The notes beneath the pieces were generated by a model. That model searched no databases. It was not told the DNA's origin and worked only from the letters and a program-made list of their open reading frames with translations. A DNA stretch of 64,000 nucleotides from Spirochaetia bacterium. GTDB lineage: Bacteria; Spirochaetota; Spirochaetia; UBA9216. Positions 7,634-40,153 of this stretch are shown piece by piece. The position numbers and the translations under genes were made by a program. Numbering within the stretch: the stretch's first letter is position 1; each line of letters starts with the position of its first letter. The stretch is from positions 448,001 to 512,000 of the forward strand of contig OZ223272.1 in the NCBI GenBank assembly GCA_965140585.1, in the 5' to 3' direction.

Positions 7634-7769
7634 TTATATAAAAGCAGGAATGATAAATCGTGTAATAATATCATGGGTTATTAGCCTTATCAGGTATTCC
7701 AACGTTTCTAATTTTCTCGAAAAACTCTGACAGTTTTCCATTAACTTTTGTGTATACATATTCTTGCAT
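7634..7769 (-). pseudogene. Deletion chimera: DUF5343 N-terminus fused to a serine-hydrolase C-terminal tail
   Basis: 7769-7671 encodes MQEYVYTKVNGKLSEFFEKIRNVGIPDKANNP* (similar to the start of 37194-37814); 7675-7634 encodes HDIITRFIIPAFI* (cf. DDIMKRFIIPAFQ* ending at 16377). Confidence 0.6.
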
Positions 7770-8195
7770 TTTTTCCTCCTCTGAAATCATTCAAAAACAG
7801 TTTTATATGATTAAATCGATATTTATTACTGTCAAATAGTATCATAGTAACAATATTTGACATAGTTTTTTATCTAATCACCTCTTTCAATAAATAGTAC
7901 ATTTATATCCCTTCTTCGCCCGTCGGCCGGAGGTCCGGGCGTCTTCTTCTTGTCGGGCTCATTGCACATAACGTCTGCGGTTATATGACGTTTGGCGCAG
8001 CCAAATGTGCCGCAGGCCGAGGCCGAATGGCCGATGCAAATAACCGCTGTTATATAAAGTACTTGGGCTCACTAGTTTCTTCCCCAAAAGACAAGGACGT
8101 ATTTTGGGATCCAATATTAATCTACTTCTTTTCTCTTCAACTCTTACTCTTCAATCTCTTTATTTCAATAATGTTCCTAACTTTATCATAGAATA

Positions 8196-8711
8196 TTAAA
8201 TATTTGTTTTTTTGTTAATATTGTAGATCATTAAAAATTCCTCTTCATTCTCACCTATTATTTGGAACCCTATGTTTTGATACATCTTTAAAGCGTAGTT
8301 ATCTTTTTGTACAGCTAAACTTGCTTTCTTAAAACCTTTATCTCTTAATAATTTCAACATTGAAATCATCAAAGAAGTACCAATTCCATATCCTCTAAAA
8401 TCTTTTAGAATCGATATTGCGAACTCTGGAGTTTTATCATCTATATTCCCAAAGCCTTTGATTTGTTCGGATAATATCCTAACCCAAACACAGCCTATTA
8501 TTTCTTTTTCATATTCTGCTACTAAGCAATAATCTGATTCTTTTCCAAACTCCGCAATATAAACCTGAAGTTCAGGCTTTTTAATTATATCTTTTGGCAG
8601 TCGATCCTTATTATTCTTTTGAAATATTGCCTCGTAGAGAAAATTGTCTAATACATAAATTTCCGATGTTTTAATGTTTCTAATCTTGTAGTTGATTTGA
8701 TTCTTTTTCAT
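8196..8711 (-). CDS. GNAT acetyltransferase (cassette 1)
   Basis: FRGYGIGT, SLAVQKDN, YQNIGF motifs. Confidence 0.88.
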   Translation of the reverse strand: MKKNQINYKIRNIKTSEIYVLDNFLYEAIFQKNNKDRLPKDIIKKPELQVYIAEFGKESDYCLVAEYEKEIIGCVWVRILSEQIKGFGNIDDKTPEFAISILKDFRGYGIGTSLMISMLKLLRDKGFKKASLAVQKDNYALKMYQNIGFQIIGENEEEFLMIYNINKKTNI

Positions 8712-8958
8712 AATTTCTCAATAATTTCTATCATAAAATTTTTCAATCCTTCTCTTACCCTTTTTCTCTTTTTCTTCACGAGCCAGGACGGCGAGTGCTG
8801 AATCCTCTTCGCCCAAGTATTTCATATAACGTCCCGGGGTTAAGCGAAGTTGCGAAGCAATTTGGGCGCAGGCCGAAGGGCCGGAGCCGCTTAACCCCTG
8901 TTATCTGAAGTATTGTGGCTTAAGCCGTAATTACAGGACGTAATTACGGCTTTCTTCT

Positions 8959-9183
8959 CTACGATAACTCTCGAGCTTCTCTAATAACATCAAGAATTTC
9001 TTTGGTTGTAACTTTACTTTTAATTCCTGGAACATCAAATGGCGATTTGCTTTCATTTTTAGTAAGCGGTACAATCTTAAATCTGCTTCCATCCTTCTTT
9101 GCTATTATGACATCTTCTTCTGCTGCCATATTCAATATTGAAGCAAAATTCTGCCTAGCTTCTGAATAATTAAAAACTCTCAT
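8959..9183 (-). CDS. Phd/YefM family antitoxin (cassette 2)
   Basis: YSEARQNFASILN N-terminus. Confidence 0.85.
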   Translation of the reverse strand: MRVFNYSEARQNFASILNMAAEEDVIIAKKDGSRFKIVPLTKNESKSPFDVPGIKSKVTTKEILDVIREARELS

Positions 9184-9576
9184 TCAGACCTCCAATAAGT
9201 GGACTCCTAAATCATTAGCCACTTCTTTCATTCTATTATCCAAACTCAACAAACTGCATTTGTATCGTTTTGCTATTTCCAAATAATACGCATCGTAAGC
9301 ATATATTCCATAATCTGCTGCTATTACTAATGAGTTTTGAATATTAACATCAATCAAACGCACTGGTATTTTCTGAAATATTGAATAACAATCAATTATT
9401 TGACTCTTATCTAATCTATTTCTTTTATACATTACAGATAGAGCGTTTCCCACTTCGAAAGGTAAAACAACCGGTGATATCAGATCATCTTCCTGAGTTA
9501 ATCCAATTATTTTGCTTTTTTCCGGCTCATCGAGAATTACTGCTAAATATATGTTTGCATCTACCAATATACTCAT
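9184..9576 (-). CDS. PIN-domain (VapC) toxin, upstream of its antitoxin (cassette 2)
   Basis: ILVDAN...YAYDAYYL...LLSLD PIN motifs; start moved to ATG at 9576. Confidence 0.88.
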   Translation of the reverse strand: MSILVDANIYLAVILDEPEKSKIIGLTQEDDLISPVVLPFEVGNALSVMYKRNRLDKSQIIDCYSIFQKIPVRLIDVNIQNSLVIAADYGIYAYDAYYLEIAKRYKCSLLSLDNRMKEVANDLGVHLLEV

Positions 9577-9611
9577 GTGTACATTGTACAACACTTTTTA
9601 AATTTTATCAA
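9577..9611 (-). promoter_or_regulatory. Sigma70 promoter with TGTACA operator; probably leaderless transcript
   Basis: TTGATA-17-TACAAT, ATG 6 nt after the -10; two TGTACA palindromes around the -10. Confidence 0.7.
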
Positions 9612-9778
9612 TCTTAATTCTTTCTAACGAGCCAAGGAAGGCGAGTTTCTTCAAACCACAATATTTCGGATAACGTTCTGAGAATAGGCGAAGTTGGCCA
9701 CAGGCCAATTTGGGTGAAGCGAAGCGGAACCGCCTATTCTCTGTTACAGGAAGTTGATTGAGCTACCTTAGTTCAATC

Positions 9779-11135
9779 GATAACGTAAAAAATCTTTCGC
9801 ACATTTAAAAAATAATGGAAAAGGTCCTCAAGAAGGTTTAATATTTTTTCACCACAAAAAATGAACCAAAGAGAGGACCTTTATGGCAACAAATGAGCCA
9901 GGTAAAATTATACAAATAGATGAGCATTTAGTCCAATCACAATTGAAAGAAGTTGTGAGAGACACTGTTGAAGAAACTCTGAATTCTTTGCTCGATGCAG
10001 AAGCTGACAGGCTTTGCGGAGCAGAAAAATACGAGCGAACTGATGCACGTAAAGATACCCGTGCTGGCTATTACAAACGAAACCTTGATACATCTGCCGG
10101 TCGCGTTGAACTCAAAATGCCTAAGCTAAGAAATCTGCCTTTTGAAACAGCAATTGTCGAACGGTATAAGCGCCGAGAGGCTTCGGTTGAAGAGTCTCTG
10201 ATTGAGATGTATCTGGCCGGAGTTTCTGTTCGTCGAGTTGAAGATATTACCGAAGCACTCTGGGGAACCAAGGTTTCATCAGGTACTGTAAGTAATTTAA
10301 ATAAACAGATTTATGAGTAAATAGAAGCTTGGCGGAACAGACCTATCAAGGAGTATTACCTTTATGTTTATCTCGATGGCATAGTATTGAAGCGCTCCTG
10401 GGCTGGAGAAGTTAGAAATGTATCAGTTTTGGTGGCTATAGGGGTCTCAGAGAGCGGTTATCGTGAAATAATTGGTGTTGCCGAGGGAGCAAAAGAGGAT
10501 AAAGCAGGCTGGAGTGACTTCCTGAAGTTCTTGAAATCCCGAAGGCTTAAAGATGTTAAATTGATTATCTCTGATAAGTGTATGGGCCTTGTAGAATCGA
10601 TCTGTGAATACTTCCCCGAATCCAGATGGCAACGCTGTGTAGTGCATTATTACCGCAATGTTTTTTCTGTAGTACCTCGTGGAAAAATGCGAGAAGTTGC
10701 TGCAATGCTTAAAGCAATTCATGCTCAAGAAGATAGAGATGAGGCATTGAAAAAGGCTTCATATGTAGCTAAGAAACTTGAAGATATGAAACTTCACAAA
10801 GCATCGAAAAAGGTATCTGAATGTATCCATGAAACCCTTGAATACATGTTCTTCCCAGAACAGCACTGGCAAAGAATTAAGACGAATAATCCACTGGAAC
10901 GGATCATGCGGGAAATCCGAAGGCGTACCCGAGTAGTTGGTAATTTCCCTGATGGAAATTCTGCTCTTATGCTGGTCTCTGCTCGGCTCCGACATATTGC
11001 CGGAACAAAATGGGGCACAAAAAAATACTTGAACACTGCTCTTTTGAAGGAGTATGATTACATAGAAAAGGAGGTACTTGCATAGCATCTTCTTGAGGAC
11101 CAAATCTGAAAGTGCGAAAGATTTTAAGCGCTACC
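9779..11135 (+). mobile_element. IS256-family insertion sequence
   Basis: Imperfect TIRs (GATAACGTAAAAAATCTTTCGCAC / GGTAGCGCTTAAAATCTTTCGCAC); 8-bp target duplication GTTCAATC at 9771-9778 and 11136-11143. Confidence 0.92.
9883..11085 (+). pseudogene. IS256 transposase with in-frame nonsense codon
   Basis: EMYLAGVSVRRV, YLDG, QRCVVH, TNNPLER motifs; TAA at 10318-10320 with the frame continuing IEAWRNRP. Confidence 0.9.
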
Positions 11136-11541: not shown

Positions 11542-11763
11542 TAAAGTCCTCAATCAATTTCCTATAACGTCCCGGGTTAAGCGAAGCTGAAGTGCTACTA
11601 CAGGAGAGTTTTGCGAATGCGCAAAACCGACTGAACTTGCTCTGCTTCTTCGTAAGCTTCAGTTTGGGTGAGGCCGTATGGCCGAACCGCTTAACCCTTG
11701 TTATCTGCTGTGAACCAGCGTTCCAGACCGTATAACGGAGTTAGGTCTGAAAATTCTTCATTC

Positions 11764-12162
11764 TTATATACTCCAATCTTCGATTTTTAACCCTTTCACT
11801 CTTTCGAATTCTTTAACATTGTTTGTTACAAATATTAATTCTTTATTTAAAGCTTGTGCAGCTAATAACATATCTATTGGACCTATAATCCGACCTTGTT
11901 TTCTTAAATCTGTCTTTAACCTTCCATAATCTATAGCATCTGAATCATCGAAATTTAAAATATTAAAAATCGATAAGAATTTTAGCAATGCAATACGATT
12001 ATTCTCAATCTTTTGACTATTTTCAACTCCAAACTCTAATTCAGCAACTGTTAGGGATGATATGTAGATTCCATCTGAAATCTTTTCTTTCAATTTCTTT
12101 AAAACCGATTCTGGTCTTTTTTTAATTGCGAAAATACAAATATTTGTATCTAATAAATACAT
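11764..12162 (-). CDS. vapC: VapC toxin (PIN), cassette 4
   Basis: YLLDTNIC, GPIDMLLAAQAL, VTNNVKEFERV. Confidence 0.93.
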   Translation of the reverse strand: MYLLDTNICIFAIKKRPESVLKKLKEKISDGIYISSLTVAELEFGVENSQKIENNRIALLKFLSIFNILNFDDSDAIDYGRLKTDLRKQGRIIGPIDMLLAAQALNKELIFVTNNVKEFERVKGLKIEDWSI

Positions 12163-12392
12163 TAGAAACTTTCCCTTTCTTGATTCTTTCCCTGTTCTCT
12201 TCCTGTATCCATAAAATCATCCGAAAACTCATTAATCCCTTCAACGAATATTTCCCATAACTTCTCATGTGGAAATAATAAAACAGCATCACCGTGCTTT
12301 TGAATATAAACTTCATCTCCTCTGAACTGGTACTCTTTTGGTAACCTAACTGCTTGAGATCTGCCATTCATAAATATTTTTGCTGTTTGCAT
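12162..12392 (-). CDS. vapB: VapB/VagC AbrB-type antitoxin, cassette 4
   Basis: AKIFMNGRSQAVRLPKEYQF. Confidence 0.93.
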   Translation of the reverse strand: MQTAKIFMNGRSQAVRLPKEYQFRGDEVYIQKHGDAVLLFPHEKLWEIFVEGINEFSDDFMDTGREQGKNQERESF

Positions 12393-12410
12393 ATTATCAC
12401 CTCTATATTA

Positions 12411-12439
12411 AATATATACCTTGATATATACCTTGTCAA
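12411..12439 (-). promoter_or_regulatory. vapBC promoter/operator
   Basis: TTGACA-17-TATATT containing two AGGTATATAT repeats. Confidence 0.7.
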
Positions 12440-12651
12440 ACATTACTTTATCCAAAATCTATTATTTTCTTAATCGCCCGTCGGCCGGAGGTCCGGGCGT
12501 CTTCTCTTCGCTGGTTTATTGCAGATAACGTTCCAGGGTTATACGACGTTCGGCGCAGCCCGTAGGCCGAATGGCCGGAGCGTGTAACCCTTGTTATGCG
12601 CTTTGAGCCTGACATCCAGACCGTTCAACGGAGTTAGGTCTGGATTCTTCT

Positions 12652-14800: not shown

Positions 14801-14830
14801 GTCGATAAAATCAATTCTTTCCCAACTATT

Positions 14831-17780: not shown

Positions 17781-17945
17781 GTAAATAACTCCTTTGTTAA
17801 ATATTTCTCTTCGCCCGTCGGCCGGAGGTCCGGGCGTCTTACTCTTGTTGGGCTCATTGCACATAACGTCCCGGGGTTATACGACGTTCGGCAAAGCCGA
17901 ATGTGGCGCAGCCCGAAGCCCGAATGGGCGGAGCGTATAGCCCCT

Positions 17946-18350
17946 GTTATGCGACGTCGCCTTTATTAGAGAAAGATTCCGATCAATCAAACGATCTAAA
18001 TAATCTCCTCTTACCATTTCTACCCAATATTCTATTCGCCCTTTGCGACTTTCACAATCATTTTTATTTCACCTGCAAGTCAACGAGCAAAGTGAGTGTG
18101 GCAGACTTGCCAAACTGAAAAAACCTGTCATGCCCACGAAGCAGATTTTGATAATTATAAGCCAATACTTTTTCTTTAACGTCAGAACAAACATCGTCCA
18201 ACGCAACGACCTTCTTATAACAACAACCAAATCAAAATCCAAAATCTTCCTCATTCCAGGGCGAATTGAATATTGCAAACTATTTGGTAATCACTTATGG
18301 TTCGGAACTTTCTCCACCCCAAGATCATGCTCCGGCGATGTCCGCATAAC
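17946..18350. repeat. ORF-less cassette family A, copy 1
   Basis: ~405 bp unit GTTATGCGACGTCGCC...GGCGATGTCCGCATAAC between att sites. Confidence 0.9.
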
Positions 18351-18487
18351 GTTCCGGGGTTATGTGACGTACGGCTTAAGCCGTATGTGGCGCAGCCCGA
18401 GGAGCGCATAGCGACGAAGCACATAGCCCCTGTTAGACGATGTCACGAACCTTCTTCAAAGCCAAGCAACACGGATGTTGTTTGGCT

Positions 18488-18817
18488 TTAATCTATTAAC
18501 ATTTCTTGTAGTATATTCTTGACGAGTTCAACTTCTTTTTTAGTTATTTTCCCTATTTTTTTTATTAGTCTCTTCTTATCAACAGTTCGCAGCTGATCTA
18601 AAACAATCCATCCTTCTTTCTTCTCAAATTTTATTGACACCCGCGTCGGATAAGGATGTGATTTCGTAGTCATCGGAGCAATTATAATTGTCTGAATTGA
18701 CTCATTCATTTCATTTGGTGAAATCACTAAACAAGGTCTTGTCTTTTTAATTTCATGGCCAACTGTGGGATCTAAGTTTATTAAAAATACTTCATATTGA
18801 TGAATTACCATTCCCAT
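18488..18817 (-). CDS. mazF: PemK/MazF toxin (cassette 11)
   Basis: LDPTVGHEIKKTRPCLVIS, LDQLRTVDKKRL. Confidence 0.93.
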   Translation of the reverse strand: MGMVIHQYEVFLINLDPTVGHEIKKTRPCLVISPNEMNESIQTIIIAPMTTKSHPYPTRVSIKFEKKEGWIVLDQLRTVDKKRLIKKIGKITKKEVELVKNILQEMLID

Positions 18818-19053
18818 TCAAAATCATCCTGATCAGTTAAATTGTCCACAAGTAATGAATCATCCTTATTTTGATGCATCTTCATAAACTCTTCAGACCA
18901 TCCTTCTCTTGGCTTTTTCTTTATAGGTCTAATCAGTATTTCTGTATTATGCACTTCTAACTCTACTTTTTCTTCTATATTTAACTGTTGCAAAATGCTT
19001 TTAGGAATTCGTATCCCTTTTGAATTACCTATAGGAACCACTGAAACTAACAT
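18805..19053 (-). CDS. mazE: AbrB/MazE antitoxin (cassette 11)
   Basis: IGNSKGIRIPK; overlaps mazF. Confidence 0.9.
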   Translation of the reverse strand: MLVSVVPIGNSKGIRIPKSILQQLNIEEKVELEVHNTEILIRPIKKKPREGWSEEFMKMHQNKDDSLLVDNLTDQDDFEWEW

Positions 19054-19072
19054 AATTCACCTCATTATTGTA

Positions 19073-19101
19073 ATTATATAGTAATTACTCCAATTCGTCA
19101 A
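19073..19101 (-). promoter_or_regulatory. mazEF promoter/operator
   Basis: TTGACG-17-TATAAT with GTAATTAC palindrome. Confidence 0.75.
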
Positions 19102-19230
19102 TCTTTGCTTGCCAGGGATGGTAAGCATCCTCTTTCTCTTAGGTTCGTGATTTCGTCTAACGTCCCGGGGTTAAGCGAAGTTGCGCAGCAATTTAGGCGC
19201 AGGCCGAAGGGCCGGAGCCGCTTAACCCCT

Positions 19231-19634
19231 GTTATGCGACGTCGCCTTTATTAGAGAAAGATTCCGATCAATCAAACGATCTAAATAATCTCCTCTTACC
19301 ATTTCTACCAAATATTCTATTCGCCCTTGGCGACTTTCACAATCATTTTTATTTCACCAGCAAGTCAACGAGCAAAGCGAGTGTGGCAGACTTGCCAAAC
19401 GGAAAAACCTGTCATGCCCACGAAGCAGATTTTGATGATTATAAGCCAATACTTTTTCTTTAACGTCAGAACAAACATCGTCCAACGCAACGACCTTCTT
19501 CTAACAACAACCAAATCAAAATCCAAAATCTTCATCATTCCAGGGCGAATTGAATATTGTAAACTATTTGGTAATCACTTTTGGTTCGGAACTTTCTCCA
19601 CCCCAAGATCATGCTTCGGCGATGTCCGCATAAC
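19231..19634. repeat. ORF-less cassette family A, copy 2
   Basis: Near-identical to copy 1; carries a different att variant. Confidence 0.9.
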
Positions 19635-19798
19635 GTCCCGCGGTTATGTGATGTTTTGTGCTCGGCCCTACAGGCCGATTGGCAACTCTTTTGCATACAG
19701 CGCCTTTACCTCACATCTTTCTCCACTTCGCAAAAGTGATGCCAAAACAAAATATGCCGGAGGCCAAGGAGCGTTTAGCGACGCCGCACATAGCCGCT

Positions 19799-20197
19799 GT
19801 TATACGCCGTCACAAAATAAAGAAAGTTGTACATCATCTTCACAACCTAAAATTTTAGTTCACATTTCAAACTTATTTAATATTCTATTCGACCATACTG
19901 TCTTTCACAATCTTTTTTATTTACTCCGCAAAATAACGAGCTTTGCGAGTGGGCCAGTTTTGCATAAACGTTTCTGCATGCCCCAGCCCCGTACAGATTT
20001 TGATTATTCCAAAGCCAAAACTCTTTCATAGAACGTCAGAAAAAAGTCATTGTTTGAAATTTTTCTTCATCAAAACAAAAATCAAAATCTGAAATCAGAT
20101 CTTAGTCGAACAGAATATTGCCAACTTATTATTTCATTATTTAAGCGCAGCAACTTTCTTCCACCCCATATCCTTGCCCAAAGTGATGGAGTATAAC
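19799..20197. repeat. ORF-less cassette family B, copy 1
   Basis: ~398 bp unit GTTATACGCCGTCAC...GTGATGGAGTATAAC with ~178 bp att. Confidence 0.9.
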
Positions 20198-21326: not shown

Positions 21327-21489
21327 TTAATCTCCTTTTTGAAATTCAGTCTTATCGCCCGTCGGCCGGAGGCCCGGGCGTCTTCCTCTTGCCTGGCTTA
21401 TTGCTTATAACGTCCCGGGGTTATACGACGTTCGGCAAAGCCGAATGTGGCGCAGCCCGAAGCCCGAATGGGCGGAGCGTATAGCCCCT

Positions 21490-21894
21490 GTTATGCGACG
21501 TCGCCTTTATTAGAGAAAGATTCCGATCAATCAAACGATCTAAATAATCTCCTCTTACCATTTCTACCCAATATTCTATTCGCCCTTTGCGACTTTCACA
21601 ATCATTTTTATTTCACCTGCAAGTCAACGAGCAAAGCGAGTGTGGCAGACTTGCCAAACGGAAAAAACCTGTCATGCCCACGAAGCAGATTTTGATAATT
21701 ATAAGCCAATACTTTTTCTTTAACGTCAGAACAAACATCGTCCAACGCAACGACCTTCTTCTAACAACAACCAAATCTAAATCCAAAATCTTCCTCATTC
21801 CAGGGCGAATTGAATATTTCAAACTATTTGGTAATCACTTATGGTTCGGAACTTTCTCCACCCCAAGATCATGCTCCGGCGATGTCCGCATAAC
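21490..21894. repeat. ORF-less cassette family A, copy 3
   Basis: Sequence similarity to copy 1. Confidence 0.9.
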
Positions 21895-21972
21895 GTCCCG
21901 GGGTTATACGACGTTCGGCAAAGCCGAATGTGGCGCAGCCCGAAGCCCGAATGGGCGGAGCGTATAGCCCCT

Positions 21973-22377
21973 GTTATGCGACGTCGCCTTTATTAGAGAA
22001 AGATTCCGATCAATCAAACGATATAAATAATCTCCTCTTACCATTTCTACCCAATATTCTATTCGCCCTTTGCGACTTTCACAATCATTTTTATTTCACC
22101 TGCAAGTCAACGAGCAAAGCGAGTGTGGCAGACTTGCCAAACGGAAAAAACCTGTCATGCCCACGAAGCAGATTTTGATAATTATAAGCCAATACTTTTT
22201 CTTTAACGTCAGAACAAACATCGTCCAACGCAACGACCTTCTTCTAACAACAACCAAATCAAAATCCAAAATCTTCCTCATTCCAGGGCGAATTGAATAT
22301 TGCAAACTATTTGGTAATCACTTATGGTTCGGAACTTTCTCCACCCCAAGATCATGCTCCGGCGATGTCCGCATAAC
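21973..22377. repeat. ORF-less cassette family A, copy 4
   Basis: Tandem with copy 3. Confidence 0.9.
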
Positions 22378-22523
22378 GTCCCGCGGTTATATGACGTTCG
22401 GCGTAGCCGAATGTGCCGCAGGCCGAGCCCGAATGGGCGAAGCAAATAACCGCTGTTATATGCTTTGGGCTCAACATCCAGACCGTTCAACGGAGTTAGG
22501 TCTGGATTCTTCTTTCTTTAAAA

Positions 22524-22817
22524 TTAACTAATCTTTCTTTTATCTACTAATTGTCCTGTAATATATTTATGAAGAACACTTTTTACAAAGGTTTGATATT
22601 TCAACCCTTCACTATCTGCGAATTCTTTAATCTTTTCCAATTCAAACTCATCAATTCTAATATTCATTTTTGTTTCTTTTTTTCTAAATTCACGAGCAGC
22701 ACTTTTAAACATTTTCTGTCTTTCAACCGTAGGCTTAGAAATATTTTGAATATCTATACTTTTTAAAGATTCTGCTAAATCTTTTTCTTCATCATCTAAA
22801 TATTTACCATCATTCAT
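22524..22817 (-). CDS. CopG/BrnA-like antitoxin (cassette 17)
   Basis: MNIRI...GLKYQTFVKSVLHKY RHH-like; overlaps the toxin gene. Confidence 0.8.
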   Translation of the reverse strand: MNDGKYLDDEEKDLAESLKSIDIQNISKPTVERQKMFKSAAREFRKKETKMNIRIDEFELEKIKEFADSEGLKYQTFVKSVLHKYITGQLVDKRKIS

Positions 22818-23088: not shown

Positions 23089-23094
23089 ATTATC

Positions 23095-26090: not shown

Positions 26091-26280
26091 TTATATACTC
26101 ACCTCTTTTCCATATTCTATGTACCAATAATTTAAATTACACTTTCTAATAGCCCGTCGGCCGGAGGTCCGGGCGTCTTTCTCTTGGCGGAAACATTGCA
26201 GATAACGTCCCGGGCATATGCGAAGTTGGCCGCAGGCCAATTTGGGCGAAGGGGCTTGACCCCGTAGCCGCATGTGCCCT

Positions 26281-26685
26281 GTTATGCGACGTCGCCTTTA
26301 TTAGAGAAAGATTCCGATCAATCAAACGATCTAAATAATCTCCTCTTACCATTTCTACCCAATATTCTATTCGCCCTTTGCGACTTTCACAATCATTTTT
26401 ATTTCACCTGCAAGTCAACGAGCAAAGCGAGTGTGGCAGACTTGCCAAACGGAAAAAACCTGTCATGCCCACGAAGCAGATTTTGATAATTATAAGCCAA
26501 TACTTTTTCTTTAACGTCAGAACAAACATCGTCCAACGCAACGACCTTCTTCTAACAACAACCAAATCAAAATCCAAAATCTTCCTCATTCCAGGGCGAA
26601 TTGAATATTGCAAACTATTTGGTAATCACTTATGGTTCGGAACTTTCTCCACCCCAAGATCATGCTCCGGCGATGTCCGCATAAC
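26281..26685. repeat. ORF-less cassette family A, copy 6
   Basis: Similar to A1; third att variant. Confidence 0.9.
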
Positions 26686-29566: not shown

Positions 29567-29803
29567 TTTCTCATTATACCTTTTTTGGGCCAGGACGGCC
29601 CAAAAACACCCTCCGAAGCCGCCTTTTTATTGAACATAACGTCCGCGGTTATGTGATGTTTTGTGGTCGGCCCTACAGGCCGATTGGCAACTCTTTTGCA
29701 TTCAGCGCCTTTACCCTCTATCTTTCTCCATTTCGCAAAAGTGGTGACAAAACAAAATATGCCGCAGGCCAAGGAGCGTCTAGCGACGCCGCACATAGCC
29801 GCT

Positions 29804-30202
29804 GTTATACGCCGTCACAAAATAAAGAAAGTTGTACATCATCTTCACAATCTAAACATTTCTTTCACATTTCAAACTTCTTTAATATTCTATTCGACCA
29901 TACTGACTTTCACAATCTTTTTTATTTACTCCGCAAAATAACGAGCTTTGCGAGTGGGCCAGTTTTGCATAAACGTTTCTGTATGCCCCAGCCCCGTACA
30001 GATTTTGATAATTCCAAAGCCAAAACTCTTTCATAGAACGTCAGAAAAAAGTCATTGTTTGAAATTTTTCTTCATCAAAACAAAAATCAAAATCTGAAAT
30101 CAGATCTTAGTCGAACAGAATATTGCCAACTTATTATTTCATTATTTAAGCGCAGCAACTTTCTTCCACCCCATATCCTTGCCCAAAGTGATGGAGTATA
30201 AC
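29804..30202. repeat. ORF-less cassette family B, copy 3
   Basis: Similar to B1. Confidence 0.9.
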
Positions 30203-30271
30203 GTCCCGGGGTTAAGCGAAGTTGCGCAGCAATTTAGGCGTAGGCCGAATGGCCGGAGCCGCTTAACCCCT

Positions 30272-30674
30272 GTTATGCGACGTCGCTTTTTATTAGAGAA
30301 AGATTCCGATCAATCAAGTGATCTAAAAGAATCTCCACTTCTTATTTCTACCCAATATTCTATTCGCCCTTTGCGACTTTCTCAATCATTTTTATTTTAT
30401 CTGCAAGTCAACGAGCATAGCGAGTGAAGCAGACTTGCTGAACGGAACAACCTGCTGCGCCCGCGAAGCAGATTTTGATAATTATAAGCCAATACTTTTT
30501 CTTTAACGTCAGAACAAACATCGTCCAACGCAACGACCTTCTTCTAACAACCAAATCAAAATCCAAAATCTTCCTCATTCCAGGGCGAATTGAATATTGT
30601 AAACTATTTGGTAATCACTTGTGGTTCGGAACTTTCTCCACCCCAAGATCATGCTCCTGCGATGTCCGCATAAC
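30272..30674. repeat. ORF-less cassette family A, copy 7 (most divergent)
   Basis: Clustered substitutions in the left half. Confidence 0.88.
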
Positions 30675-31062
30675 GTCCCGGGGTTATATGACGTTTTTAT
30701 TTTTCTTAATTTTACCACCAATTACCCGTATTTACCAATTATAAACTATTGCTTCATGTCTGTGCATTTAACGACGATTTGAGTAGCAAAATCGGCCGAG
30801 TCTTCGAGGCATGGCGCAGTTCTGGAACGTAGCGCGATCAGCGCGAAGTGTCTTTAGCCAGAACTGTGACAAAGATTTTGACTACTCCAAATCTCTTGTT
30901 AAATGCTTACACCCAACTTACCCAAATCATAAAATAAAAATGTGGCGCAGCCCGAGGAGCTTATAGCGACGAGCAAATAACCCCTGTTATAGGCAGTAAG
31001 CGCCTCTTTGATTACATGTAGTGAGGCACGGATGCCGAACGGTAATCTTGCTATCTTTTCTG

Positions 31063-32271: not shown

Positions 32272-32494
32272 TTTATATATCCTTCATTCTTAAATGTTTG
32301 AGCCATGGACGGCTCAAACTCTTATTCTTAATTACTCTTGGCGCTTATTGACTATAACGTTCCAGGGTTATACGACGTTCGGCAAAGCCGAATGTGGCGC
32401 AGCCCGGAGGCCGTATGGCCGGAGCGAATAACCCTTGTTATAGGCAGTAAGCGCCTCTTTGATTACATGTAGTGAGGCACGGATGCCGAACGGA

Positions 32495-32702
32495 AATCTT
32501 TCTTCTTAATCTTTCTTCTTAATCTTTCTTCTTAATCTTTCTTCTTAATCTTTCTTCTTAATCTTTCTTCTTAATCTTTCTTCTTAATCTTTCTTCTTAA
32601 TCTTTCTTCTTAATCTTTCTTCTTAATCTTTCTTCTTAATCTTTCTTCTTAATCTTTCTTCTTAATCTTTCTTCTTAATCTTTCTTCTTAATCTTTCTTC
32701 TT
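32495..32702. repeat. 13-mer tandem repeat (AATCTTTCTTCTT) x16
   Basis: 208 bp counted directly. Confidence 0.96.
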
Positions 32703-33191
32703 AACAACATCTTCATAAATCATTGAAACAGCATCTGGAATGGATAAGTTTGAATTAATTCTGCTCTCAGAAATAATTCCAATCAAATCTTCTTCTCTCC
32801 ACCACTTCCTCATATCCTCTTCTCCAAAATCAGAACTATTTGATTTCGATTTATGTCGTCGTATTGTCTCTTCAAAAGATAAATCATAATAATAAGCAAA
32901 TATTTCAGAGTCAAATTCTTCTATTGCTTTTTTAAATAATCTAAGATAATAATCTGAGTATAAAATACCTTCTAAAATTACAAATTCTGAATTTCTCTTT
33001 CCATATTTAATTAATTCCTCTAAAAGTGGGATTGCCTTATTTTCAATTCTATCATGAACCCATAACATCTCTCTTCTTATATAATCCTGAGAAATCATCA
33101 TAGTATTTCGACCCAATTTTCTTTGTAATGATTTTGCTAAGGAAGTTTTTCCACTTCCTGAATTACCTCTAATAATTATTAGCTTTGACAT
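32688..33191 (-). CDS. P-loop (AAA_33-like) kinase, copy 1 (cassette 29)
   Basis: IIIRGNSGSGKT Walker A, VILEG. Confidence 0.85.
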   Translation of the reverse strand: MSKLIIIRGNSGSGKTSLAKSLQRKLGRNTMMISQDYIRREMLWVHDRIENKAIPLLEELIKYGKRNSEFVILEGILYSDYYLRLFKKAIEEFDSEIFAYYYDLSFEETIRRHKSKSNSSDFGEEDMRKWWREEDLIGIISESRINSNLSIPDAVSMIYEDVVKKKD

Positions 33192-33379
33192 CTACTTTTT
33201 ATTTCCCTCTTAGAATCCGCCACGGAAGGCGGATTTCTTTCTTCTCGAAAAATCTTGGCGCTTATTGCCTATAACGTTCCAGGGTTATACGACGTTCGGC
33301 AAAGCCGAATGTGGCGCAGCCCGGAGGTCGTATGGCCGGAGCGAATAACCCTTGTTATAGGCAGTAAGCGCCTCTTTGA

Positions 33380-33913
33380 TTACATGTAGTGAGGCACGGA
33401 TGCCGAACGGAAATCTTTCTTCTTAACAACGTCTTCATAAATCATTGAAACAGCATCTGGAATGGATAAGTCTGAATTAATTCTGCTCTCAGAAATAATT
33501 CCAATCAAATCTTCTTCTCTCCACCACTTCCTCATATCCTCTTCTCCAAAATCAGAACTATTTGATTTCGATTTATGTCGTCGTATTGTCTCTTCAAAAG
33601 ATAAATCATAATAATAAGCAAATATTTCAGAGTCAAATTCTTCTATTGCTTTTTTAAATAATCTAAGATAATAATCTGAGTATAAAATACCTTCTAAAAT
33701 TACAAATTCTGAATTTCTCTTTCCATATTTAATTAATTCCTCTAAAAGTGGGATTGCCTTATTTTCAATTCTATCATGAACCCATAACATCTCTCTTCTT
33801 ATATAATCCTGAGAAATCATCATAGTATTTCGACCCAATTTTCTTTGTAATGATTTTGCTAAGGAAGTTTTTCCACTTCCTGAATTACCTCTAATAATTA
33901 TTAGCTTTGACAT
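33380..33913 (-). CDS. P-loop kinase, copy 2, with 10-aa C-terminal extension (cassette 30)
   Basis: Single 13-mer unit, so no TAA is formed; ends FRSASVPHYM. Confidence 0.85.
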   Translation of the reverse strand: MSKLIIIRGNSGSGKTSLAKSLQRKLGRNTMMISQDYIRREMLWVHDRIENKAIPLLEELIKYGKRNSEFVILEGILYSDYYLRLFKKAIEEFDSEIFAYYYDLSFEETIRRHKSKSNSSDFGEEDMRKWWREEDLIGIISESRINSDLSIPDAVSMIYEDVVKKKDFRSASVPHYM

Positions 33914-34133
33914 CTACTTTTTATTTCCCTCTTAGAATCCGCCACGGAAGGCGGATTTCTTTCTTCTCGAAAAATCTTGGCGCTTATTGCCTATAACGTT
34001 CCAGGGTTATACGACGTTCGGCAAAGCCGAATGTGGCGCAGCCCGGAGGCCGTATGGCCGGAGCGAATAACCCTTGTTATAGGCAGTAAGCGCCTCTTTG
34101 ATTACATGTAGTGAGGCACGGATGCCGAACGGA

Positions 34134-34276
34134 AATCTTTCTTCTTAATCTTTCTTCTTAATCTTTCTTCTTAATCTTTCTTCTTAATCTTTCTTCTTAA
34201 TCTTTCTTCTTAATCTTTCTTCTTAATCTTTCTTCTTAATCTTTCTTCTTAATCTTTCTTCTTAATCTTTCTTCTT
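34134..34276. repeat. 13-mer tandem repeat (AATCTTTCTTCTT) x11
   Basis: 143 bp counted directly. Confidence 0.96.
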
Positions 34277-34765
34277 AACAACATCTTCATAAATCATTGA
34301 AACAGCATCTGGAATGGATAAGTTTGAATTAATTCTGCTCTCAGAAATAATTCCAATCAAATCTTCTTCTCTCCACCACTTCCTCATATCCTCTTCTCCA
34401 AAATCAGAACTATTTGATTTCGATTTATGTCGTCGTATTGTCTCTTCAAAAGATAAATCATAATAATAAGCAAATATTTCAGAGTCAAATTCTTCTATTG
34501 CTTTTTTAAATAATCTAAGATAATAATCTGAGTATAAAATACCTTCTAAAATTACAAATTCTGAATTTCTCTTTCCATATTTAATTAATTCCTCTAAAAG
34601 TGGGATTGCCTTATTTTCAATTCTATCATGAACCCATAACATCTCTCTTCTTATATAATCCTGAGAAATCATCATAGTATTTCGACCCAATTTTCTTTGT
34701 AATGATTTTGCTAAGGAAGTTTTTCCACTTCCTGAATTACCTCTAATAATTATTAGCTTTGACAT
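34262..34765 (-). CDS. P-loop kinase, copy 3 (cassette 31)
   Basis: Protein identical to copy 1. Confidence 0.85.
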   Translation of the reverse strand: MSKLIIIRGNSGSGKTSLAKSLQRKLGRNTMMISQDYIRREMLWVHDRIENKAIPLLEELIKYGKRNSEFVILEGILYSDYYLRLFKKAIEEFDSEIFAYYYDLSFEETIRRHKSKSNSSDFGEEDMRKWWREEDLIGIISESRINSNLSIPDAVSMIYEDVVKKKD

Positions 34766-34927
34766 CTACTTTTTATTTCCCTCTTAGAATCCGCCACGGA
34801 AGGCGGATTTCTTTCTTCTCGAAAAATCTTGGCGCTTATTGCCTATAACGTCCCGGGGTTATACGACGTTCGGCAAAGCCGAATGTGGCGCAGCCCGAAG
34901 CCCGAATGGGCGGAGCGTATAGCCCCT

Positions 34928-35328
34928 GTTATGCGACGTCGCCTTTATTAGAGAAAGATTCCGACCAATCAAACGATCTAAATAATCTCCTCTTACCATT
35001 TCTACCCAATATTCTATTCGCCCTTTGCGACTTTCACAATCATTTTTATTTTACCTGCAAGTCAACGAGCAAAGCGAGTGTGGCAGACTTGCCAAACGGA
35101 AAAACCTGTCATGCCCACGAAGCAGATTTTGATAATTATAAGCCAATACTTTTTCTTTAACGTCAGAACAAACATCGTCCAGCGCAACGACCTTCTTTTA
35201 ACAACCAAATCAAAATCCAAAATCTTCCTCATTCCAGGGCGAATTGAATATTGTAAACTATTTGGTAATCACTTGTGGTTCGGAACTTTCTCCACCCCAA
35301 GATCATGCTCCTGCGATGTCCGCATAAC
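34928..35328. repeat. ORF-less cassette family A, copy 8
   Basis: Similar to A1 with small indels. Confidence 0.9.
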
Positions 35329-35406
35329 GTCCCGGGGTTATACGACGTTCGGCAAAGCCGAATGTGGCGCAGCCCGAAGCCCGAATGGGCGGAGCGTATA
35401 GCCCCT

Positions 35407-35809
35407 GTTATGCGACGTCGCCTTTATTAGAGAAAGATTCCGATCAATCAAACGATCTAAATAATCTCCTCTTACCATTTCTACCCAATATTCTATTCGC
35501 CCTTTGCGACTTTCACAATCATTTTTTTTCACCTGCAAGTTAACGAGCAAAGCGAGTGTGGCAGACTTGCCAAACGGAAAAACCTGTCATGCCCACGAAG
35601 CAGATTTTGATAATTATAAGCCAATACTTTTTCTTTAACGTCAGAACAAACATCGTCCAACGCAACAACCTTCTTCTAACAACAACCAAATCAAAATCCA
35701 AAATCTTCCTCATTCCAGGGCGAATTAAATATTGCAAACTATTTGGTAATCACTTATGGTTCGGAACTTTCTCCACCCCAAGATCATGCTCCGGCGATGT
35801 CCGCATAAC
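35407..35809. repeat. ORF-less cassette family A, copy 9
   Basis: Similar to A1 with small indels. Confidence 0.9.
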
Positions 35810-35974
35810 GTCCGCGGTTATGTGATGTTTTGTGGTCGGGCCCTACAGGCCGATTGGCAACTCTTTTGCATTCAGCGCCTTTACCCTCTATCTTGCTACT
35901 ACTTCGCAAAAGTGGTGACAAAGCAAAATATGCCGCAGGCCAAGGAGCGTTTAGCGACGCCGCACATAGCCGCT

Positions 35975-36372
35975 GTTATACGCCGTCACAGAATAAAGAA
36001 AGTTGTACATCATCTTCATAATCTAAACATTTATTTCACATTTCAAACTTCTTTAATATTCTATTCGACCATACTGACTTTCACAATCTTTTTTATTTAC
36101 TCCGCAAAATAACGAGCTTTGCGAGTGGGCCAGTTTTGCATAAACGTTTCTGCATGCCCCAGCCCCGTACAGATTTTGATTATTCCAAAGCCAAAACTCT
36201 TTCATAGAACGTCAGAAAAAAGTCATTGTTTGAAATTTTTCTTCATCAAAATAGAAATCAAAATCTGAAATCATATCTTAGTCGAAGAGAATATTGCCAA
36301 CTTATTATTTCATTATTAAGCGCAGCAACTTTCTTCCACCCAATATCCTTGCCCAAAGTGATGGAGTATAAC
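35975..36372. repeat. ORF-less cassette family B, copy 4
   Basis: Similar to B1. Confidence 0.9.
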
Positions 36373-36622
36373 GTCCGTGGTTAAGCGAAGCTGATGCGCA
36401 ACTAAAGGAGTGTTTTGCGAATGCGCAAAACCGACTGACCCTGCTCTACTTCTCCGTAAGCTTCAGTTTGGGTGAAAGCGCCATGGCGCTTTCACCGCTT
36501 AACCATTGTTATGTGCTTTGAGCCCGACATCCAGACCGTTCAACGGAGTTAGGTCTGGATTCTTCTTTTCTTTTCCCAGGATTCTGAAAATAATCAATAC
36601 TGCTGTAAACACGTATTATGTT

Positions 36623-37201
36623 TTATAATCCTATTACTCTATTCCAATCTGCAATATACATATAAATTCTTTGAAATTCTGATGGTAGTAGCATTCTATT
36701 ATGTGCTATAAAATTTCTTGTTTTTTCAAGTTCATCCATTCTTTGTTTTAACCAATGTTGCGATGGTATCAAGGTTTCAAAAAAATGCCAAAACTCAATC
36801 ATAATTTGAGACAGCATTCCAAAATCTATAAAACCAAGAAGATCAGATTTTTCACCTTCTAACCAACTATCTTTTAAAGCGGATTCCTGACGTCTTTGAG
36901 CATGATCTTTTATTCTATTTGGAATCGAATCCCACCAATTTACCCCGATATTTTCCTGTAATGTTTCTCGAATTAGATCTCTTATTTCATTTTCAAAACA
37001 AAATATTAAACTATATAAACGAGACATTTCTAGTGCTTTATTTCTCCTATTAATCGAGAAAGGAGAGATAACCTCATTTGTTAAATCTATCTCAGTTCTC
37101 GAATCAGAAGCCCCTATTTGTATTCCTGCTTTTTGAAATTTATTTGCTTCAGATTCAAACATTAACCCTCGAAAAAGATAATCTCTTAAATCTTTAGTCA
37201 A
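36623..37201 (-). CDS. Swt1-like HEPN domain protein (cassette 35)
   Basis: FENEIRDLI..L....G.NWW, RNFIAH (RxxxxH). Confidence 0.8.
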   Translation of the reverse strand: MTKDLRDYLFRGLMFESEANKFQKAGIQIGASDSRTEIDLTNEVISPFSINRRNKALEMSRLYSLIFCFENEIRDLIRETLQENIGVNWWDSIPNRIKDHAQRRQESALKDSWLEGEKSDLLGFIDFGMLSQIMIEFWHFFETLIPSQHWLKQRMDELEKTRNFIAHNRMLLPSEFQRIYMYIADWNRVIGL

Positions 37202-37814
37202 TTAAATGCTCCTTAACACTTTTAAATATTGCGTTATAAACTTCTATATCTTTTGTTGCTGGTAAATGTATCTGAATATTATAATGTAATGAAGTTTGAC
37301 TGATCTTCCTTTCAATTGACTCAATTTTTTCTGGCTCGATTTCTTCTTTCTCATTATCATTATCTTCTACTATTTTTGTCTCTTCAACTACATCAGAATT
37401 TATATCTGCAAATTCTAATAGTGAATAAAATGTTTTCATCATCAATTCTGCATTGCGTTCTGAAGTATTATGAGTACTTTTAAACTTACCTTTTATTAAT
37501 TCTTTATCTTTATCTTCAGGATATCTGCTAATAGTAAAAATATCCGAATATGCCTCTTTAATTGCTTTGCCCAAGATTTTTCGTGATAAAGCTTCATTTC
37601 TAAATTCTTTATATTCATCAGTTGGTGATCCATCCTCTGTTAAAAACCCTAAAGCTTTTAATAATGGAATAAATGCTCTATGATTAGTCGAAGTAAATCC
37701 TATATCTTTCAAATGCTGATTAGTAAATTTCCCAGGAGCTTGTCCTTGTTTTATTTTATTAAAAAAATCTCCTAATTGACCATAAACTTGCAGCGGAATA
37801 TTTGCCAAACTCAT
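37194..37814 (-). CDS. DUF5343 domain protein (cassette 35)
   Basis: APGKFT..HLKDIGF, LKALGFLTEDGSPT, YNIQIHLPAT. Confidence 0.8.
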   Translation of the reverse strand: MSLANIPLQVYGQLGDFFNKIKQGQAPGKFTNQHLKDIGFTSTNHRAFIPLLKALGFLTEDGSPTDEYKEFRNEALSRKILGKAIKEAYSDIFTISRYPEDKDKELIKGKFKSTHNTSERNAELMMKTFYSLLEFADINSDVVEETKIVEDNDNEKEEIEPEKIESIERKISQTSLHYNIQIHLPATKDIEVYNAIFKSVKEHLID

Positions 37815-38132
37815 ATTCTCTCCCTTTATTTAAATTATTTCATATATATAACATTATAACGCTAAAATAATAATTTGGATCCTTAAAAATCACAACTTAA
37901 ACATTCTCTCTTCGCCCGTCGGCCGGAGGTCCGGGCGTCTTCCTCTTGTCGGGCTCATTGCACATAACGTCCCGCGGTTATGTGATGTTTTGTGCTCGGC
38001 CCTACAGGCCGATTGGCAACTCTTTTGCATTCAGCGCCTTTACCCTCTATCTTTCTCCATTTCGCAAAAGTGGTGACAAAACAAAATATGCCGCAGGCCA
38101 AGGAGCGTCTAGCGACGCCGCACATAGCCGCT

Positions 38133-38531
38133 GTTATACGCCGTCACAAAATAAAGAAAGTTGTACATCATCTTCACAATCTAAACATTTCTTTCACATT
38201 TCAAACTTCTTTAATATTCTATTCGACCATACTGACTTTCACAATCTTTTTTATTTACTTCGCAAAATAACGAGCTTTGCGAGTGGGCCAGTTTTGCATA
38301 AACGTTTCTGCATGCCCCAGCCCCGTACAGATTTTGATTATTCCAAAGCCAAAACTCTTTCATAGAACGTCAGAAAAAAGTCGTTGTTTGAAATTTTTCT
38401 TCATCAAAACAAAAATCAAAATCTGAAATCAGATCTTAGTCGAACAGAATATTGCAAACTTATTATTTCATTATTTAAGCGCAGCAACTTTCTTCCACCC
38501 CATATCCTTGCCAAAAGTGATGGAGTATAAC
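38133..38531. repeat. ORF-less cassette family B, copy 5
   Basis: Most similar to B3. Confidence 0.9.
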
Positions 38532-38609
38532 GTCCCGGGGTTATACGACGTTCGGCAAAGCCGAATGTGGCGCAGCCCGAAGCCCGAATGGGCGGAGCGT
38601 ATAGCCCCT

Positions 38610-39014
38610 GTTATGCGACGTCGCCTTTATTAGAGAAAGATTCCGATCAATCAAACGATCTAAATAATCTCCTCTTACCATTTCTACCCAATATTCTATT
38701 CGCCCTTTGCGACTTTCACAATCATTTTTATTTCACCTGCAAGTCAACGAGCAAAGTGAGTGTGGCAGACTTGCCAAACTGAAAAAACCTGTCATGCCCA
38801 CGAAGCAGATTTTGATAATTATAAGCCAATACTTTTTCTTTAACGTCAGAACAAACATCGTCCAACGCAACGACCTTCTTATAACAACAACCAAATCAAA
38901 ATCCAAAATCTTCCTCATTCCAGGGCGAATTGAATATTGCAAACTATTTGGTAATCACTTATGGTTCGGAACTTTCTCCACCCCAAGATCATGCTCCGGC
39001 GATGTCCGCATAAC
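38610..39014. repeat. ORF-less cassette family A, copy 10 (first cassette of the array)
   Basis: Shares diagnostic variants with A1. Confidence 0.9.
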
Positions 39015-39081
39015 TCAGAATTATAAACTGGAATATCGTGCATATAACCCTCTAGATCCAGTACTTATAAACCTGTTATTC
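39008..39081 (-). other. Array-proximal (attI-equivalent) recombination site
   Basis: Cassette homology stops at the G/TTATGC junction (39014); the site is an imperfect palindrome ending in the integrase stop codon. Confidence 0.75.
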
Positions 39082-40153
39082 ATAATAACCCGTCCAGTGG
39101 ACTATTTATATTTTTTAGGTCTTTAGTACTTACATGTGTATAAATCTGTGTTGTTTTTGGATCACGATGGCCTAAGAGCTCCTGAATATATCTGAGGTCT
39201 GTACCGTTTTCCAACAGGTGAGTGGCAAAGGCATGTCTTAAAGAATGTATACTTACATTTTTTTCAATACCTGTTGCTTCGATAGCTTTATAAAAGGCGT
39301 TCTGTGCAGATCTTGTAGCAAGATGGGTATCCGCACCTGCACTGCCAGGAAAAAGCCATGTATGTACCATCACTTTGGATCTGTATTCATTAATCATATG
39401 AATAATCTCAGTTGAAAGCATTACATATCTATCTTTTCGTCCTTTTGCCTGCCTGATATGAATTACTTTCCTATCGGTGTCAATATCCTGCAACTGTATT
39501 ATAACTGCTTCGCTTACTCGGAGACCTGCAGAGTATATTAATGATAATAGCAATCGGTGCTTAATATTCGGCGGAGATGTTATAATCTTCTTTACTTCTT
39601 CCCTGGATAGAATATCCGGATACTTCTTTTCTTTTTTCGGCATGGGAATCGATGCTGCAGGATTAAACAGACCGCCTAGATATCCGTATTTATAATAGCA
39701 TTTCAGGGCGCTCACACATTGTACAAAGTATGTTCTTGAGCATCCTGCAAGTGTCCGCATTTTCTCAAGATATATTTTAATATCCTCTGTCGTAACCTCT
39801 GAAGGATAAAGTTCTGTTCTTTCAAAGAACCACTTCAGCTGCATCTTATATGTTTCGATAGTATGAGGACTATAGTCTCTAAGCTTTAGATACTGCAGCA
39901 TCTTTTCCAGATAGCGGTTATGAGACGGTTCCTGATTTTCGAGAGACTTCTCATCCACATTAAACCTGCCGGTTTTATACAATGACAAAAGAAAGTGCTG
40001 CATATTTGCATCTGTATCCGGAAATGTCCATTTTTTATTTGCCGGCTGCCATTGTCTTCCCGGTATTGTACGTACAATATCAAGAACCTGAGCATCGAAA
40101 GGGAAAAATATACCTATTTTATTATTTTCTTCATAAACGATTTCAACTGCCAA
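39080..40153 (-). CDS. Tyrosine recombinase (integron-integrase-like SAM_4 N-domain; lacks the IntI insertion; extra N-terminal domain)
   Basis: Catalytic R (GLRVSE), K (KGRKDR), HxLRH, LGH, Y (QIYTHV); LRDYSPHTIETY SAM-like domain. Confidence 0.93.
   Translation of the reverse strand: MAVEIVYEENNKIGIFFPFDAQVLDIVRTIPGRQWQPANKKWTFPDTDANMQHFLLSLYKTGRFNVDEKSLENQEPSHNRYLEKMLQYLKLRDYSPHTIETYKMQLKWFFERTELYPSEVTTEDIKIYLEKMRTLAGCSRTYFVQCVSALKCYYKYGYLGGLFNPAASIPMPKKEKKYPDILSREEVKKIITSPPNIKHRLLLSLIYSAGLRVSEAVIIQLQDIDTDRKVIHIRQAKGRKDRYVMLSTEIIHMINEYRSKVMVHTWLFPGSAGADTHLATRSAQNAFYKAIEATGIEKNVSIHSLRHAFATHLLENGTDLRYIQELLGHRDPKTTQIYTHVSTKDLKNINSPLDGLL

Follow-up and report, generated by a model that had tools for sequence, protein, structure and literature searches.

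The DNA analysed here (the window) is a 64,000-nt stretch of the 4.85-Mb genome of a Spirochaetia bacterium (G000), namely positions 448001-512000 of contig OZ223272.1 (C9; two other contigs of this genome are labelled C1 and C6). The window contains an array of 37 gene cassettes that ends beside a gene for a tyrosine recombinase, P0001, lying in the same orientation. Three FlaA matches over the cut-off occur in this genome and none in 14 control genomes, in keeping with a spirochaete. An earlier reading of the letters alone (the original prediction) described this locus as a distinct class of cassette system based on hairpins of single-stranded DNA (ssDNA). The features that make up the locus are as follows.

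39080-40153, minus strand: intact gene for the tyrosine recombinase P0001 (357 aa), recognised from domain, profile and alignment evidence
39008-39050, minus strand: attI-like site with a TAA-N7-TTA core and the putative crossover G|TT at 39014/39013 (comparative evidence)
7972-39013, minus strand: cassette array, 37 cassettes of 472-1894 bp
Plus strand: att hairpins 1-12, with TAAC starts at 7969, 8827, 9671, 11565, 12526, 13342, 14476, 15429, 16170, 17864, 18347 and 19158
Plus strand: att hairpins 13-24, with TAAC starts at 19631, 20194, 21408, 21891, 22374, 23208, 23769, 24252, 25069, 26203, 26682 and 27472
Plus strand: att hairpins 25-36, with TAAC starts at 28713, 29637, 30199, 32355, 33272, 33994, 34846, 35325, 35806, 36369, 37965 and 38528
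30671-30989, plus strand: hybrid 319-nt site of cassette 10, whose extended terminal hairpin holds a classical attC
30769-30901, plus strand: the nested classical attC, with an extra L-box base, of the same family as the sites of an integron-integrase (IntI) array on C6
7623-7971, minus strand: terminal remnant with a cassette 5' end (60 nt, 98% like that of cassette 3) and no att site after it

Searching for two-arm hairpins yielded 36 that are all of one type (TAAC...GTTA, 71-173 nt) at 7969-38613 and lie on the plus strand, and the same detector made no calls in any of 20 local shuffles of the array region. Site 37, the 319-nt hybrid, is of the same type. The sites delimit 22 coding cassettes and 15 cassettes without an open reading frame (ORF), ten of a kind designated A and five of a kind designated B, which agrees with the numbers given in the original prediction. 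The array has a GC content of 36% versus 42% and 46% in the flanks, and its cargo genes lie on the minus strand, the sole exception being an IS256-type transposase within cassette 35. An Rfam search of the window gave no match.

On the plus strand, each of these sites, called type-2 sites below, consists of a 6-bp R stem, 3-4 extra nucleotides on the 5' arm, an L stem running unbroken for 11 bp and, at the tip, a branched part with side hairpins. The 3-4-nt bulge beside the crossover was found in 37/37 sites, the 11 contiguous pairs of the L stem are 94.8% paired and the L box has no extrahelical base; the unusual att geometry claimed earlier is therefore real. Classical attC is marked by an extrahelical L-box base and a nearly symmetric spacer of 5-6 nt. 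In a covariation set of 30 sites from the window and its relatives, 88.8% of the cells are paired and 16 of the 26 pairs changed on both sides. The covariation score was 0.387 compared with 0.137 in shuffles and no more than 0.107 in slid controls; none of 500 shuffles reached the observed pairing and the slid controls were 29-46% paired, a control that is generous because the structure was derived from the same sequences. Two almost invariant G.T pairs and the count of GNA triloops (51 versus 1) favour the plus strand, so the folded strand is the one opposite to the genes, as in attC. The boxes bounding the sites are RYYYAAC/GTTRRRY-like and the sites fold as bottom-strand hairpins. A detector of classical geometry called the nested site plus 1 of the other 36 sites in the window.

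The putative crossover G|TT lies 65 nt past the P0001 stop codon, exactly where the array had been predicted to end. A GGTTAT.. repeat lies upstream of the attI-like core and was found too behind homologs in three other genomes, namely G001 (same genus), G004 and G007. At and above 39012 the G001 genome is 95% identical to the window, and at and below 7622, where synteny restarts, it is 93% identical; between these points its cassettes are mostly different and stand in another order. A contig from sequencing run X4 also departs from the window at 39012, with 84 letters differing in 1388, similar to G001, of which it may not be independent. At the level of sequence, the cassettes of close relatives are seen to turn over at exactly the attI-like junction.

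P0001 comprises an N-terminal alpha/beta domain of ~60 aa, a SAM-like core-binding domain (SAM_4) and a catalytic domain (PF00589, E-value 1.6e-42), and its six catalytic residues (R212, K237, H303, R306, H329 and Y338) are invariant among 14 homologs. It had been described as lacking the IntI signature. Indeed, it scored 192.8 bits on the integron-integrase model TIGR02249, below the cut-off of 265, and the spacing between R242 and H303 is 61 residues versus 101-102 in IntI. Alignment with IntI1 and the IntI encoded on C6 revealed that ~40 residues of IntI1 and spirochaete IntIs are missing from P0001, and the IntI-specific insertion (I2) around patch III is absent. P0001 is also under the XerC and XerD cut-offs (199.4 versus 335 bits and 197.4 versus 330 bits, respectively) and passes the NF040815 model (229.4 bits, cut-off 220). 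The best matches of its structure model (pLDDT 85) were XerA and VchIntIA (PDB 2a3v), with XerA closest among solved structures. Residues 17-48 showed a weak match to HARP (PF07443; E-value 8.1e-5; 22.5 bits, below the Pfam cut-off of 25). The N-terminal domain alone (residues 1-65) matched eIF1 (Z 5.8), the N-terminal domain of UvsW (Z 5.7, rmsd 3.0, 61 residues aligned) and XPB (Z 5.0-5.2). The UvsW and XPB N-terminal domains are presumably related to the HARP-like fold, and the matches of the modelled domain fit such a fold but do not prove it.

After removal of the insertion columns from an alignment of 49 proteins, the maximum-likelihood tree showed IntI as monophyletic (99.5/100) and placed it in one group with the insertion-less proteins and recombinases coupled to IS91 elements, separate from Xer (99.9/100). 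The deep nodes had bootstrap values of 16-68%, and for this reason the tree does not settle whether IntI is nested in the insertion-less proteins or sister to them. A search of the ESM Atlas returned generic integrase clusters only, mostly of Bacteroidota.

A canonical IntI is encoded in the same genome (C6:916643-917902; 419 aa with an N-terminal extension; 374.7 bits on TIGR02249). The divergent array that it heads comprises 15 or more classical attC sites, whose L box has an additional base, a bottom-strand C (C6:916643-942700, loci L043 and L148). A covariance model of type-2 sites (R1), partly built from the loci of relatives on which it was then run, found no type-2 site within the C6 IntI array and gave 2 matches in 9 loci around canonical IntI genes. 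Beside insertion-less homologs, R1 found 17 sites in G001, 13 in G054, 11 in G007, 8 in G004, 7 in G018, 3 in G006, 2 each in G045 and G056 and 1 in G012, and none in seven further, mostly short, loci of such homologs. The array lies downstream of the recombinase gene in most cases and upstream in G018, G054 and G204. Near the IntI genes of G000, G001, G004, G007, G018 and G054, 50 classical sites and one type-2 site were counted (G045 gave none, and G006 was left out as its contig ends too soon); the lone type-2 site lies inside an adaptor-bounded block of the kind described below. Judged from these loci, type-2 sites are segregated from classical attC by the neighbouring recombinase in several relatives. 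Two solo type-2 sites were observed outside the array, at C1:859301-859388 and C6:939583-939671, the latter degenerate and ~22 kb from intI; they are possibly secondary-site insertions.

The custom covariance model and the search of other genomes suggested in the original prediction showed that arrays adjoin insertion-less homologs in multiple genomes. Among 79 homolog loci (one genome per species), 9 had at least two strict sites, including those of Ignavibacteriota, Flavobacteriaceae and Calditrichales; in this count some loci were unscored, many end within 2 kb of the gene or at a contig edge, and one of the nine is probably due to chance. Many array-less loci belong to Xer or IS91-linked branches. 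In Winogradskyella ursingii, a Calditrichales metagenome-assembled genome (MAG) and an Ignavibacteriota MAG, 3-10 type-2 sites lie beside the homolog, and no protein over the TIGR02249 cut-off was found in these three genomes, each searched whole. In a site-first test, 80 metagenome loci were chosen by the site motif alone: six contained recombinase sequence, all closest to P0001, none contained IntI, and the insertion was absent from 4/4 recombinases spanning its region. The strict site pattern matched 2 of 401 genomes of the phylum. This pattern is too lineage-specific, because in family f50, where 5/5 genomes tested have a homolog, the covariance model matched 3/5 and folding showed variant sites. 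A loose hairpin detector made four type-2 and one classical false calls on 167 kb of shuffled DNA, and stricter rules were therefore used for the counts.

On the Chryseobacterium plasmid NZ_CP041688, a homolog heads a type-2 array (L311 11980-22100) in which two sites carry insertions at the R'' end, a group II intron and an IS110 element. Elements that target attC insert at the R'' end likewise. In addition, a 142-nt palindromic element is repeated on the opposite strand after several sites of this plasmid.

In the hybrid site of cassette 10, a complete classical attC of the C6 family sits between conserved linkers. The type-2 array of G001 contains four hybrid sites, and the canonical array of the same genome contains two blocks (L155, G001:C3, 9430-10955 and 14415-16647) that begin with the right half of a hybrid, end with its left half and attC, and carry 1-2 type-2 cassettes in between. 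Recombination of the nested attC by IntI would be expected to yield just such blocks. They show traffic between the two systems, and suggest that IntI needs a classical site to move type-2 cargo.

The ORF-less cassettes, all on the minus strand, are positioned as follows.

38531-39013, 35328-35808, 34849-35327, 30202-30673, 26206-26684: A cassettes 1-5 of ten
23772-24254, 21894-22376, 21411-21893, 19161-19633, 17867-18349: A cassettes 6-10 of ten
37968-38530, 35809-36371, 29640-30201, 23211-23771, 19634-20196: the five B cassettes

The A and B bodies are homologous (68% identity over 310 nt) and structured (z -1.3 to -4.7). Within the source genome they are confined to this array, and among 11 family genomes they were found in G000 and G001 only (it is A that recurs in G001), plus one 36-nt match in G006. 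The original prediction held that each hairpin travels with the gene 5' of it. This is so for three kinase copies, which share one att, and for the five B cassettes, which share another, but among the ten near-identical A bodies the att comes in three types (86 nt in seven, 77 nt in two and 82 nt in one); the att hairpin is thus not always tied to its body.

Coding cassettes begin with GTTA-N5-AAT in 21 of 22 cases, followed by ~9 bases, and end with the complement, which has a fixed mismatch at position 11. The ends are specific to the cassette: own ends match at 7.5 of 10 positions versus 3.8 for other cassettes, and 0 of 10,000 permutations were as high. At least 8 of 10 positions past the R box match in 20 of the 22 coding cassettes, and the structured cassette ends noticed earlier accordingly take the form of ~20-bp self-complementary repeats. 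The same level of match was found in 19/30 cassettes of relatives versus 1/29 in canonical arrays, and end repeats are present in the Ignavibacteriota array too. When paired junctions were folded, end pairing beat the R-box pairing of the site itself at 24/34 type-2 junctions versus 8/30 canonical ones; in this folding the middle of longer cassettes was shortened, which favours end pairing in both groups.

Several further observations concern cassette ends and bodies. An Ignavibacteriota array (L058 11100-14270) has repeated ORF-less bodies of ~190 nt, also with self-complementary ends. At several junctions (L031 6185, L155 15740 and L036 16200), GTT plus at least one extra base stands ahead of the usual cassette start, which suggests slippage at the crossover. 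A leader hairpin, GCCCGGACCTCCGGCCGACGGGC, is common to 11 window cassettes (7900-37950) and also occurs in some classical cassettes of relatives (L153, L155), hinting that both kinds of cassette are made by the same route.

The array is best read as a sedentary chromosomal integron, co-oriented with its recombinase. It likely belongs to a second class of integrons, run by the adjacent insertion-less recombinase on folded ssDNA, and the idea of a distinct ssDNA-hairpin class is supported by the protein scores, the site geometry and the segregation from IntI. The original prediction had also considered that a canonical IntI elsewhere in the genome might do the recombination, with homologs of the adjacent recombinase unlinked to arrays. 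Such an IntI does exist, but it heads sites of the other type, and the homologs are array-linked. The array could be a cluster of attC sites lacking an integron integrase (CALIN), served in trans by the C6 IntI, with the Xer-like gene as a bystander. In favour of this, canonical IntI is found in the source genome as well as in almost every spirochaete relative tested, one site of the array holds a classical attC, and the canonical array of G001 includes type-2 cassettes. We nevertheless consider it quite unlikely: site types segregate by the neighbouring recombinase, type-2 cassettes enter the canonical array solely in blocks bounded by classical attC, in three genomes the arrays occur with no IntI above the cut-off, an attI-like site closes the array 65 bp behind the P0001 gene, and the site-first scan found no IntI.

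In a second class of integrons, P0001 would act like IntI in cutting the folded bottom strand at AA|C, and would excise cassettes and insert them at its own attI. As neither the I2 helix nor an L-box extrahelical base is present, strand choice must come from elsewhere. Candidates are the 3-4-nt bulge together with the three-way junction, perhaps read by the N-terminal HARP-like domain, and the complementary ends of the cassette itself. On ssDNA, the ends could zip the two boundaries of a cassette into a four-way junction, and the excised circle would gain a longer stem, in which a fixed mismatch lies 11 nt outside the crossover. By pre-forming a four-way junction between neighbouring sites, the ends might hypothetically do part of the work of I2 in IntI. 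Hybrid sites would let IntI carry blocks of type-2 cassettes into the canonical array.

Another explanation is that P0001 runs the array on double-stranded DNA, with two strand exchanges at the inverted L'/R' boxes (ATAAC-N7/8-GTTAT), and that the hairpins serve cassette genesis or transcription. The solved structure nearest to P0001 is XerA, and P0001 does not have the element by which IntI blocks exchange of the second strand; the swapped att stems on identical A bodies would suit cleavage at the L box. However, the spacers vary between sites. Double-stranded recombination that senses homology tolerates differing spacers poorly. Moreover, selection for a fold of one strand is evident from the compensatory changes, the G.T pairs and the GNA loops, and tandem duplications (such as cassettes 7-9 and 22-23) suit replicative resolution, which makes this explanation very unlikely. 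That the cassettes are moved by XerC/XerD of the host or by an HUH (IS91-type) enzyme, in the manner of integrative mobile elements exploiting Xer (IMEX), is hardly credible: one arm pair has the dif-like TAA-N6-TTA spacing and part of the P0001 family is coupled to IS91 transposases, but none of the 61 ORFs scanned in the window has an IS91/Y2 transposase domain, the XerC/D genes lie on another contig and there are just 2 solo sites elsewhere in the genome.

A number of points weigh against the array as a second integron class run by P0001. Full canonical IntI is held by 7 of 8 spirochaete genomes tested with type-2 arrays (over the cut-off in G001, G006, G007, G018, G045 and G054, in addition to the source genome), and the eighth (G004) has a split one, which leaves room there for help in trans. 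Many homologs stand without an array, with just 9/79 loci having at least two strict sites, and one branch of the family is paired with IS91 transposases instead, beside Clostridium homologs. The HARP assignment is below the Pfam cut-off, the Z score of the fold is just 5.7, and several array-linked homologs are without the HARP-like domain. The flavobacterial arrays have no long end repeats and the A and B cassettes show them weakly, and consequently such repeats cannot be essential; the shortening used in junction folding also belongs here. No Pc promoter driving the array was identified in a search that gave 9 promoter-like sites compared with 6.8 +/- 2.6 expected by chance. Lastly, no junctions of cassette circles were seen in the contigs searched over 34850-40400, a result that carries no evidential weight.

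Insertion-less homologs coupled to IS91 were annotated at L313 (NZ_CP077625, 7986-10023); at L017 and L044 the coupling is merely suggested by the downstream sequence.

The system was compared with known ones. Like sedentary chromosomal integrons (IntI/attI/attC; VchIntIA), it has a recombinase adjoining attI, a G|TT crossover, co-oriented cassettes and bottom-strand hairpins with R''/R' boxes. Especially with the co-oriented Treponema type (Wu et al. 2013, PMC3607928) it shares toxin-antitoxin, GNAT, HNH and defence cargo, ORF-less cassettes, and duplication and turnover at attI; Treponema is given there as the only spirochaete clade with integrons. Unlike classical integrons, it has no IntI insertion, a 3-4-nt bulge beside the crossover, no L-box extrahelical base, a branched terminal structure, ~20-bp cassette-specific end repeats and an extra N-terminal domain. 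The Spirochaetes attC model of Ghaly et al. 2021 starts with classical geometry: the C at position 16 is unpaired.

P0001 groups with IntI and away from XerC/D, like the 'integron-like' subgroup of tyrosine recombinases of Smyshlyaev et al. 2021 (PMC8138268), in which the insertion is not fully conserved yet is deemed essential for integron function; unlike P0001, the members without the insertion are given no cassette arrays in the available part of that paper. The locus resembles a CALIN in that no intI_Cterm-type integrase stands beside the site cluster (Cury et al. 2016, PMC4889954), and differs from it in its non-classical sites, dedicated attI-like site and consistently linked recombinase. 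The same source places fewer than 3 attC near its four proteins intermediate between IntI and Xer. In the integration of IMEX/CTX-phi by XerCD (Escudero et al. 2016, PMC4792948), a folded ssDNA substrate without extrahelical bases is likewise used by a recombinase without I2; here, by contrast, there are a recombinase, an attI-like site and a multi-cassette array of the system's own, and no phage using the host dif site. No published description of this insertion-less type was found, in a search with subscription journals and bioRxiv supplements outside its coverage and the supplements of Ghaly et al. 2021 covered in part. Although two defining integron features (the IntI insertion and classical attC geometry) are absent, the system would work like an integron and, on its genomic record, is best filed as a second integron class.

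Current tools recognise integron integrases by the IntI insertion and set aside recombinases that lack it (Cury et al. 2016; Ghaly et al. 2022). Escudero et al. 2016 describe a chicken-and-egg problem in the joint origin of I2 and extrahelical bases, and arrays of 37 cassettes without either would make this question directly testable. Unrecognised cassette stores would be implied in lineages reported as integron-poor or integron-free: flavobacterial chromosomes and the Chryseobacterium plasmid carry type-2 arrays, compared with one complete integron named in Bacteroidetes proper by Néron et al. 2022. Nested attC would be a route for type-2 cargo into classical integrons, and an orthogonal pair of ssDNA recombinase and site would make a useful tool. 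A bolder proposal, which we regard as speculative and rather doubtful, is that a widespread integron class without I2 or extrahelical bases is the missing intermediate before IntI, in which cassettes synapse on ssDNA by means of their own complementary ends, the resulting four-way junction is resolved by an Xer-like tetramer with a HARP-type sensor of junctions, and adaptor sites holding a nested classical attC couple two otherwise orthogonal integrons in one cell.

The cargo includes GNATs, four pairs of toxin-antitoxin type, an HNH protein, the three kinase copies and a candidate defence pair; cargo proteins with a beta-lactamase fold were under every named-family cut-off. The annotated cassettes are listed below.

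36372-37967, minus strand: cassette 3, two genes (DUF5343 and Swt1-like HEPN) that match the PADLOC candidate defence system PDC-M34A/B
32358-34848, minus strand: cassettes 7-9, three tandem copies of a P-loop kinase-like gene (PRK06762-like)
22377-23210, minus strand: toxin-antitoxin-type cassette, DUF4258 and CopG
18350-19160, minus strand: toxin-antitoxin-type cassette, MazE and MazF
11568-12528, minus strand: toxin-antitoxin-type cassette, MazE and PIN
9883-11085, plus strand: IS256/Mutator-type transposase (two ORFs) in cassette 35, opposite to the array
8830-9673, minus strand: toxin-antitoxin-type cassette, PIN and Phd

A 13-nt tandem repeat of ~16 copies (32495-32704) expands the trailer of kinase cassette 9, and its length varies across the three kinase copies. 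Outside the array, two short ORFs of a mannitol dehydrogenase-like gene (43321-44006) and a C-terminal piece of altronate dehydratase (42782-43195) were found, which are probable pseudogenes.

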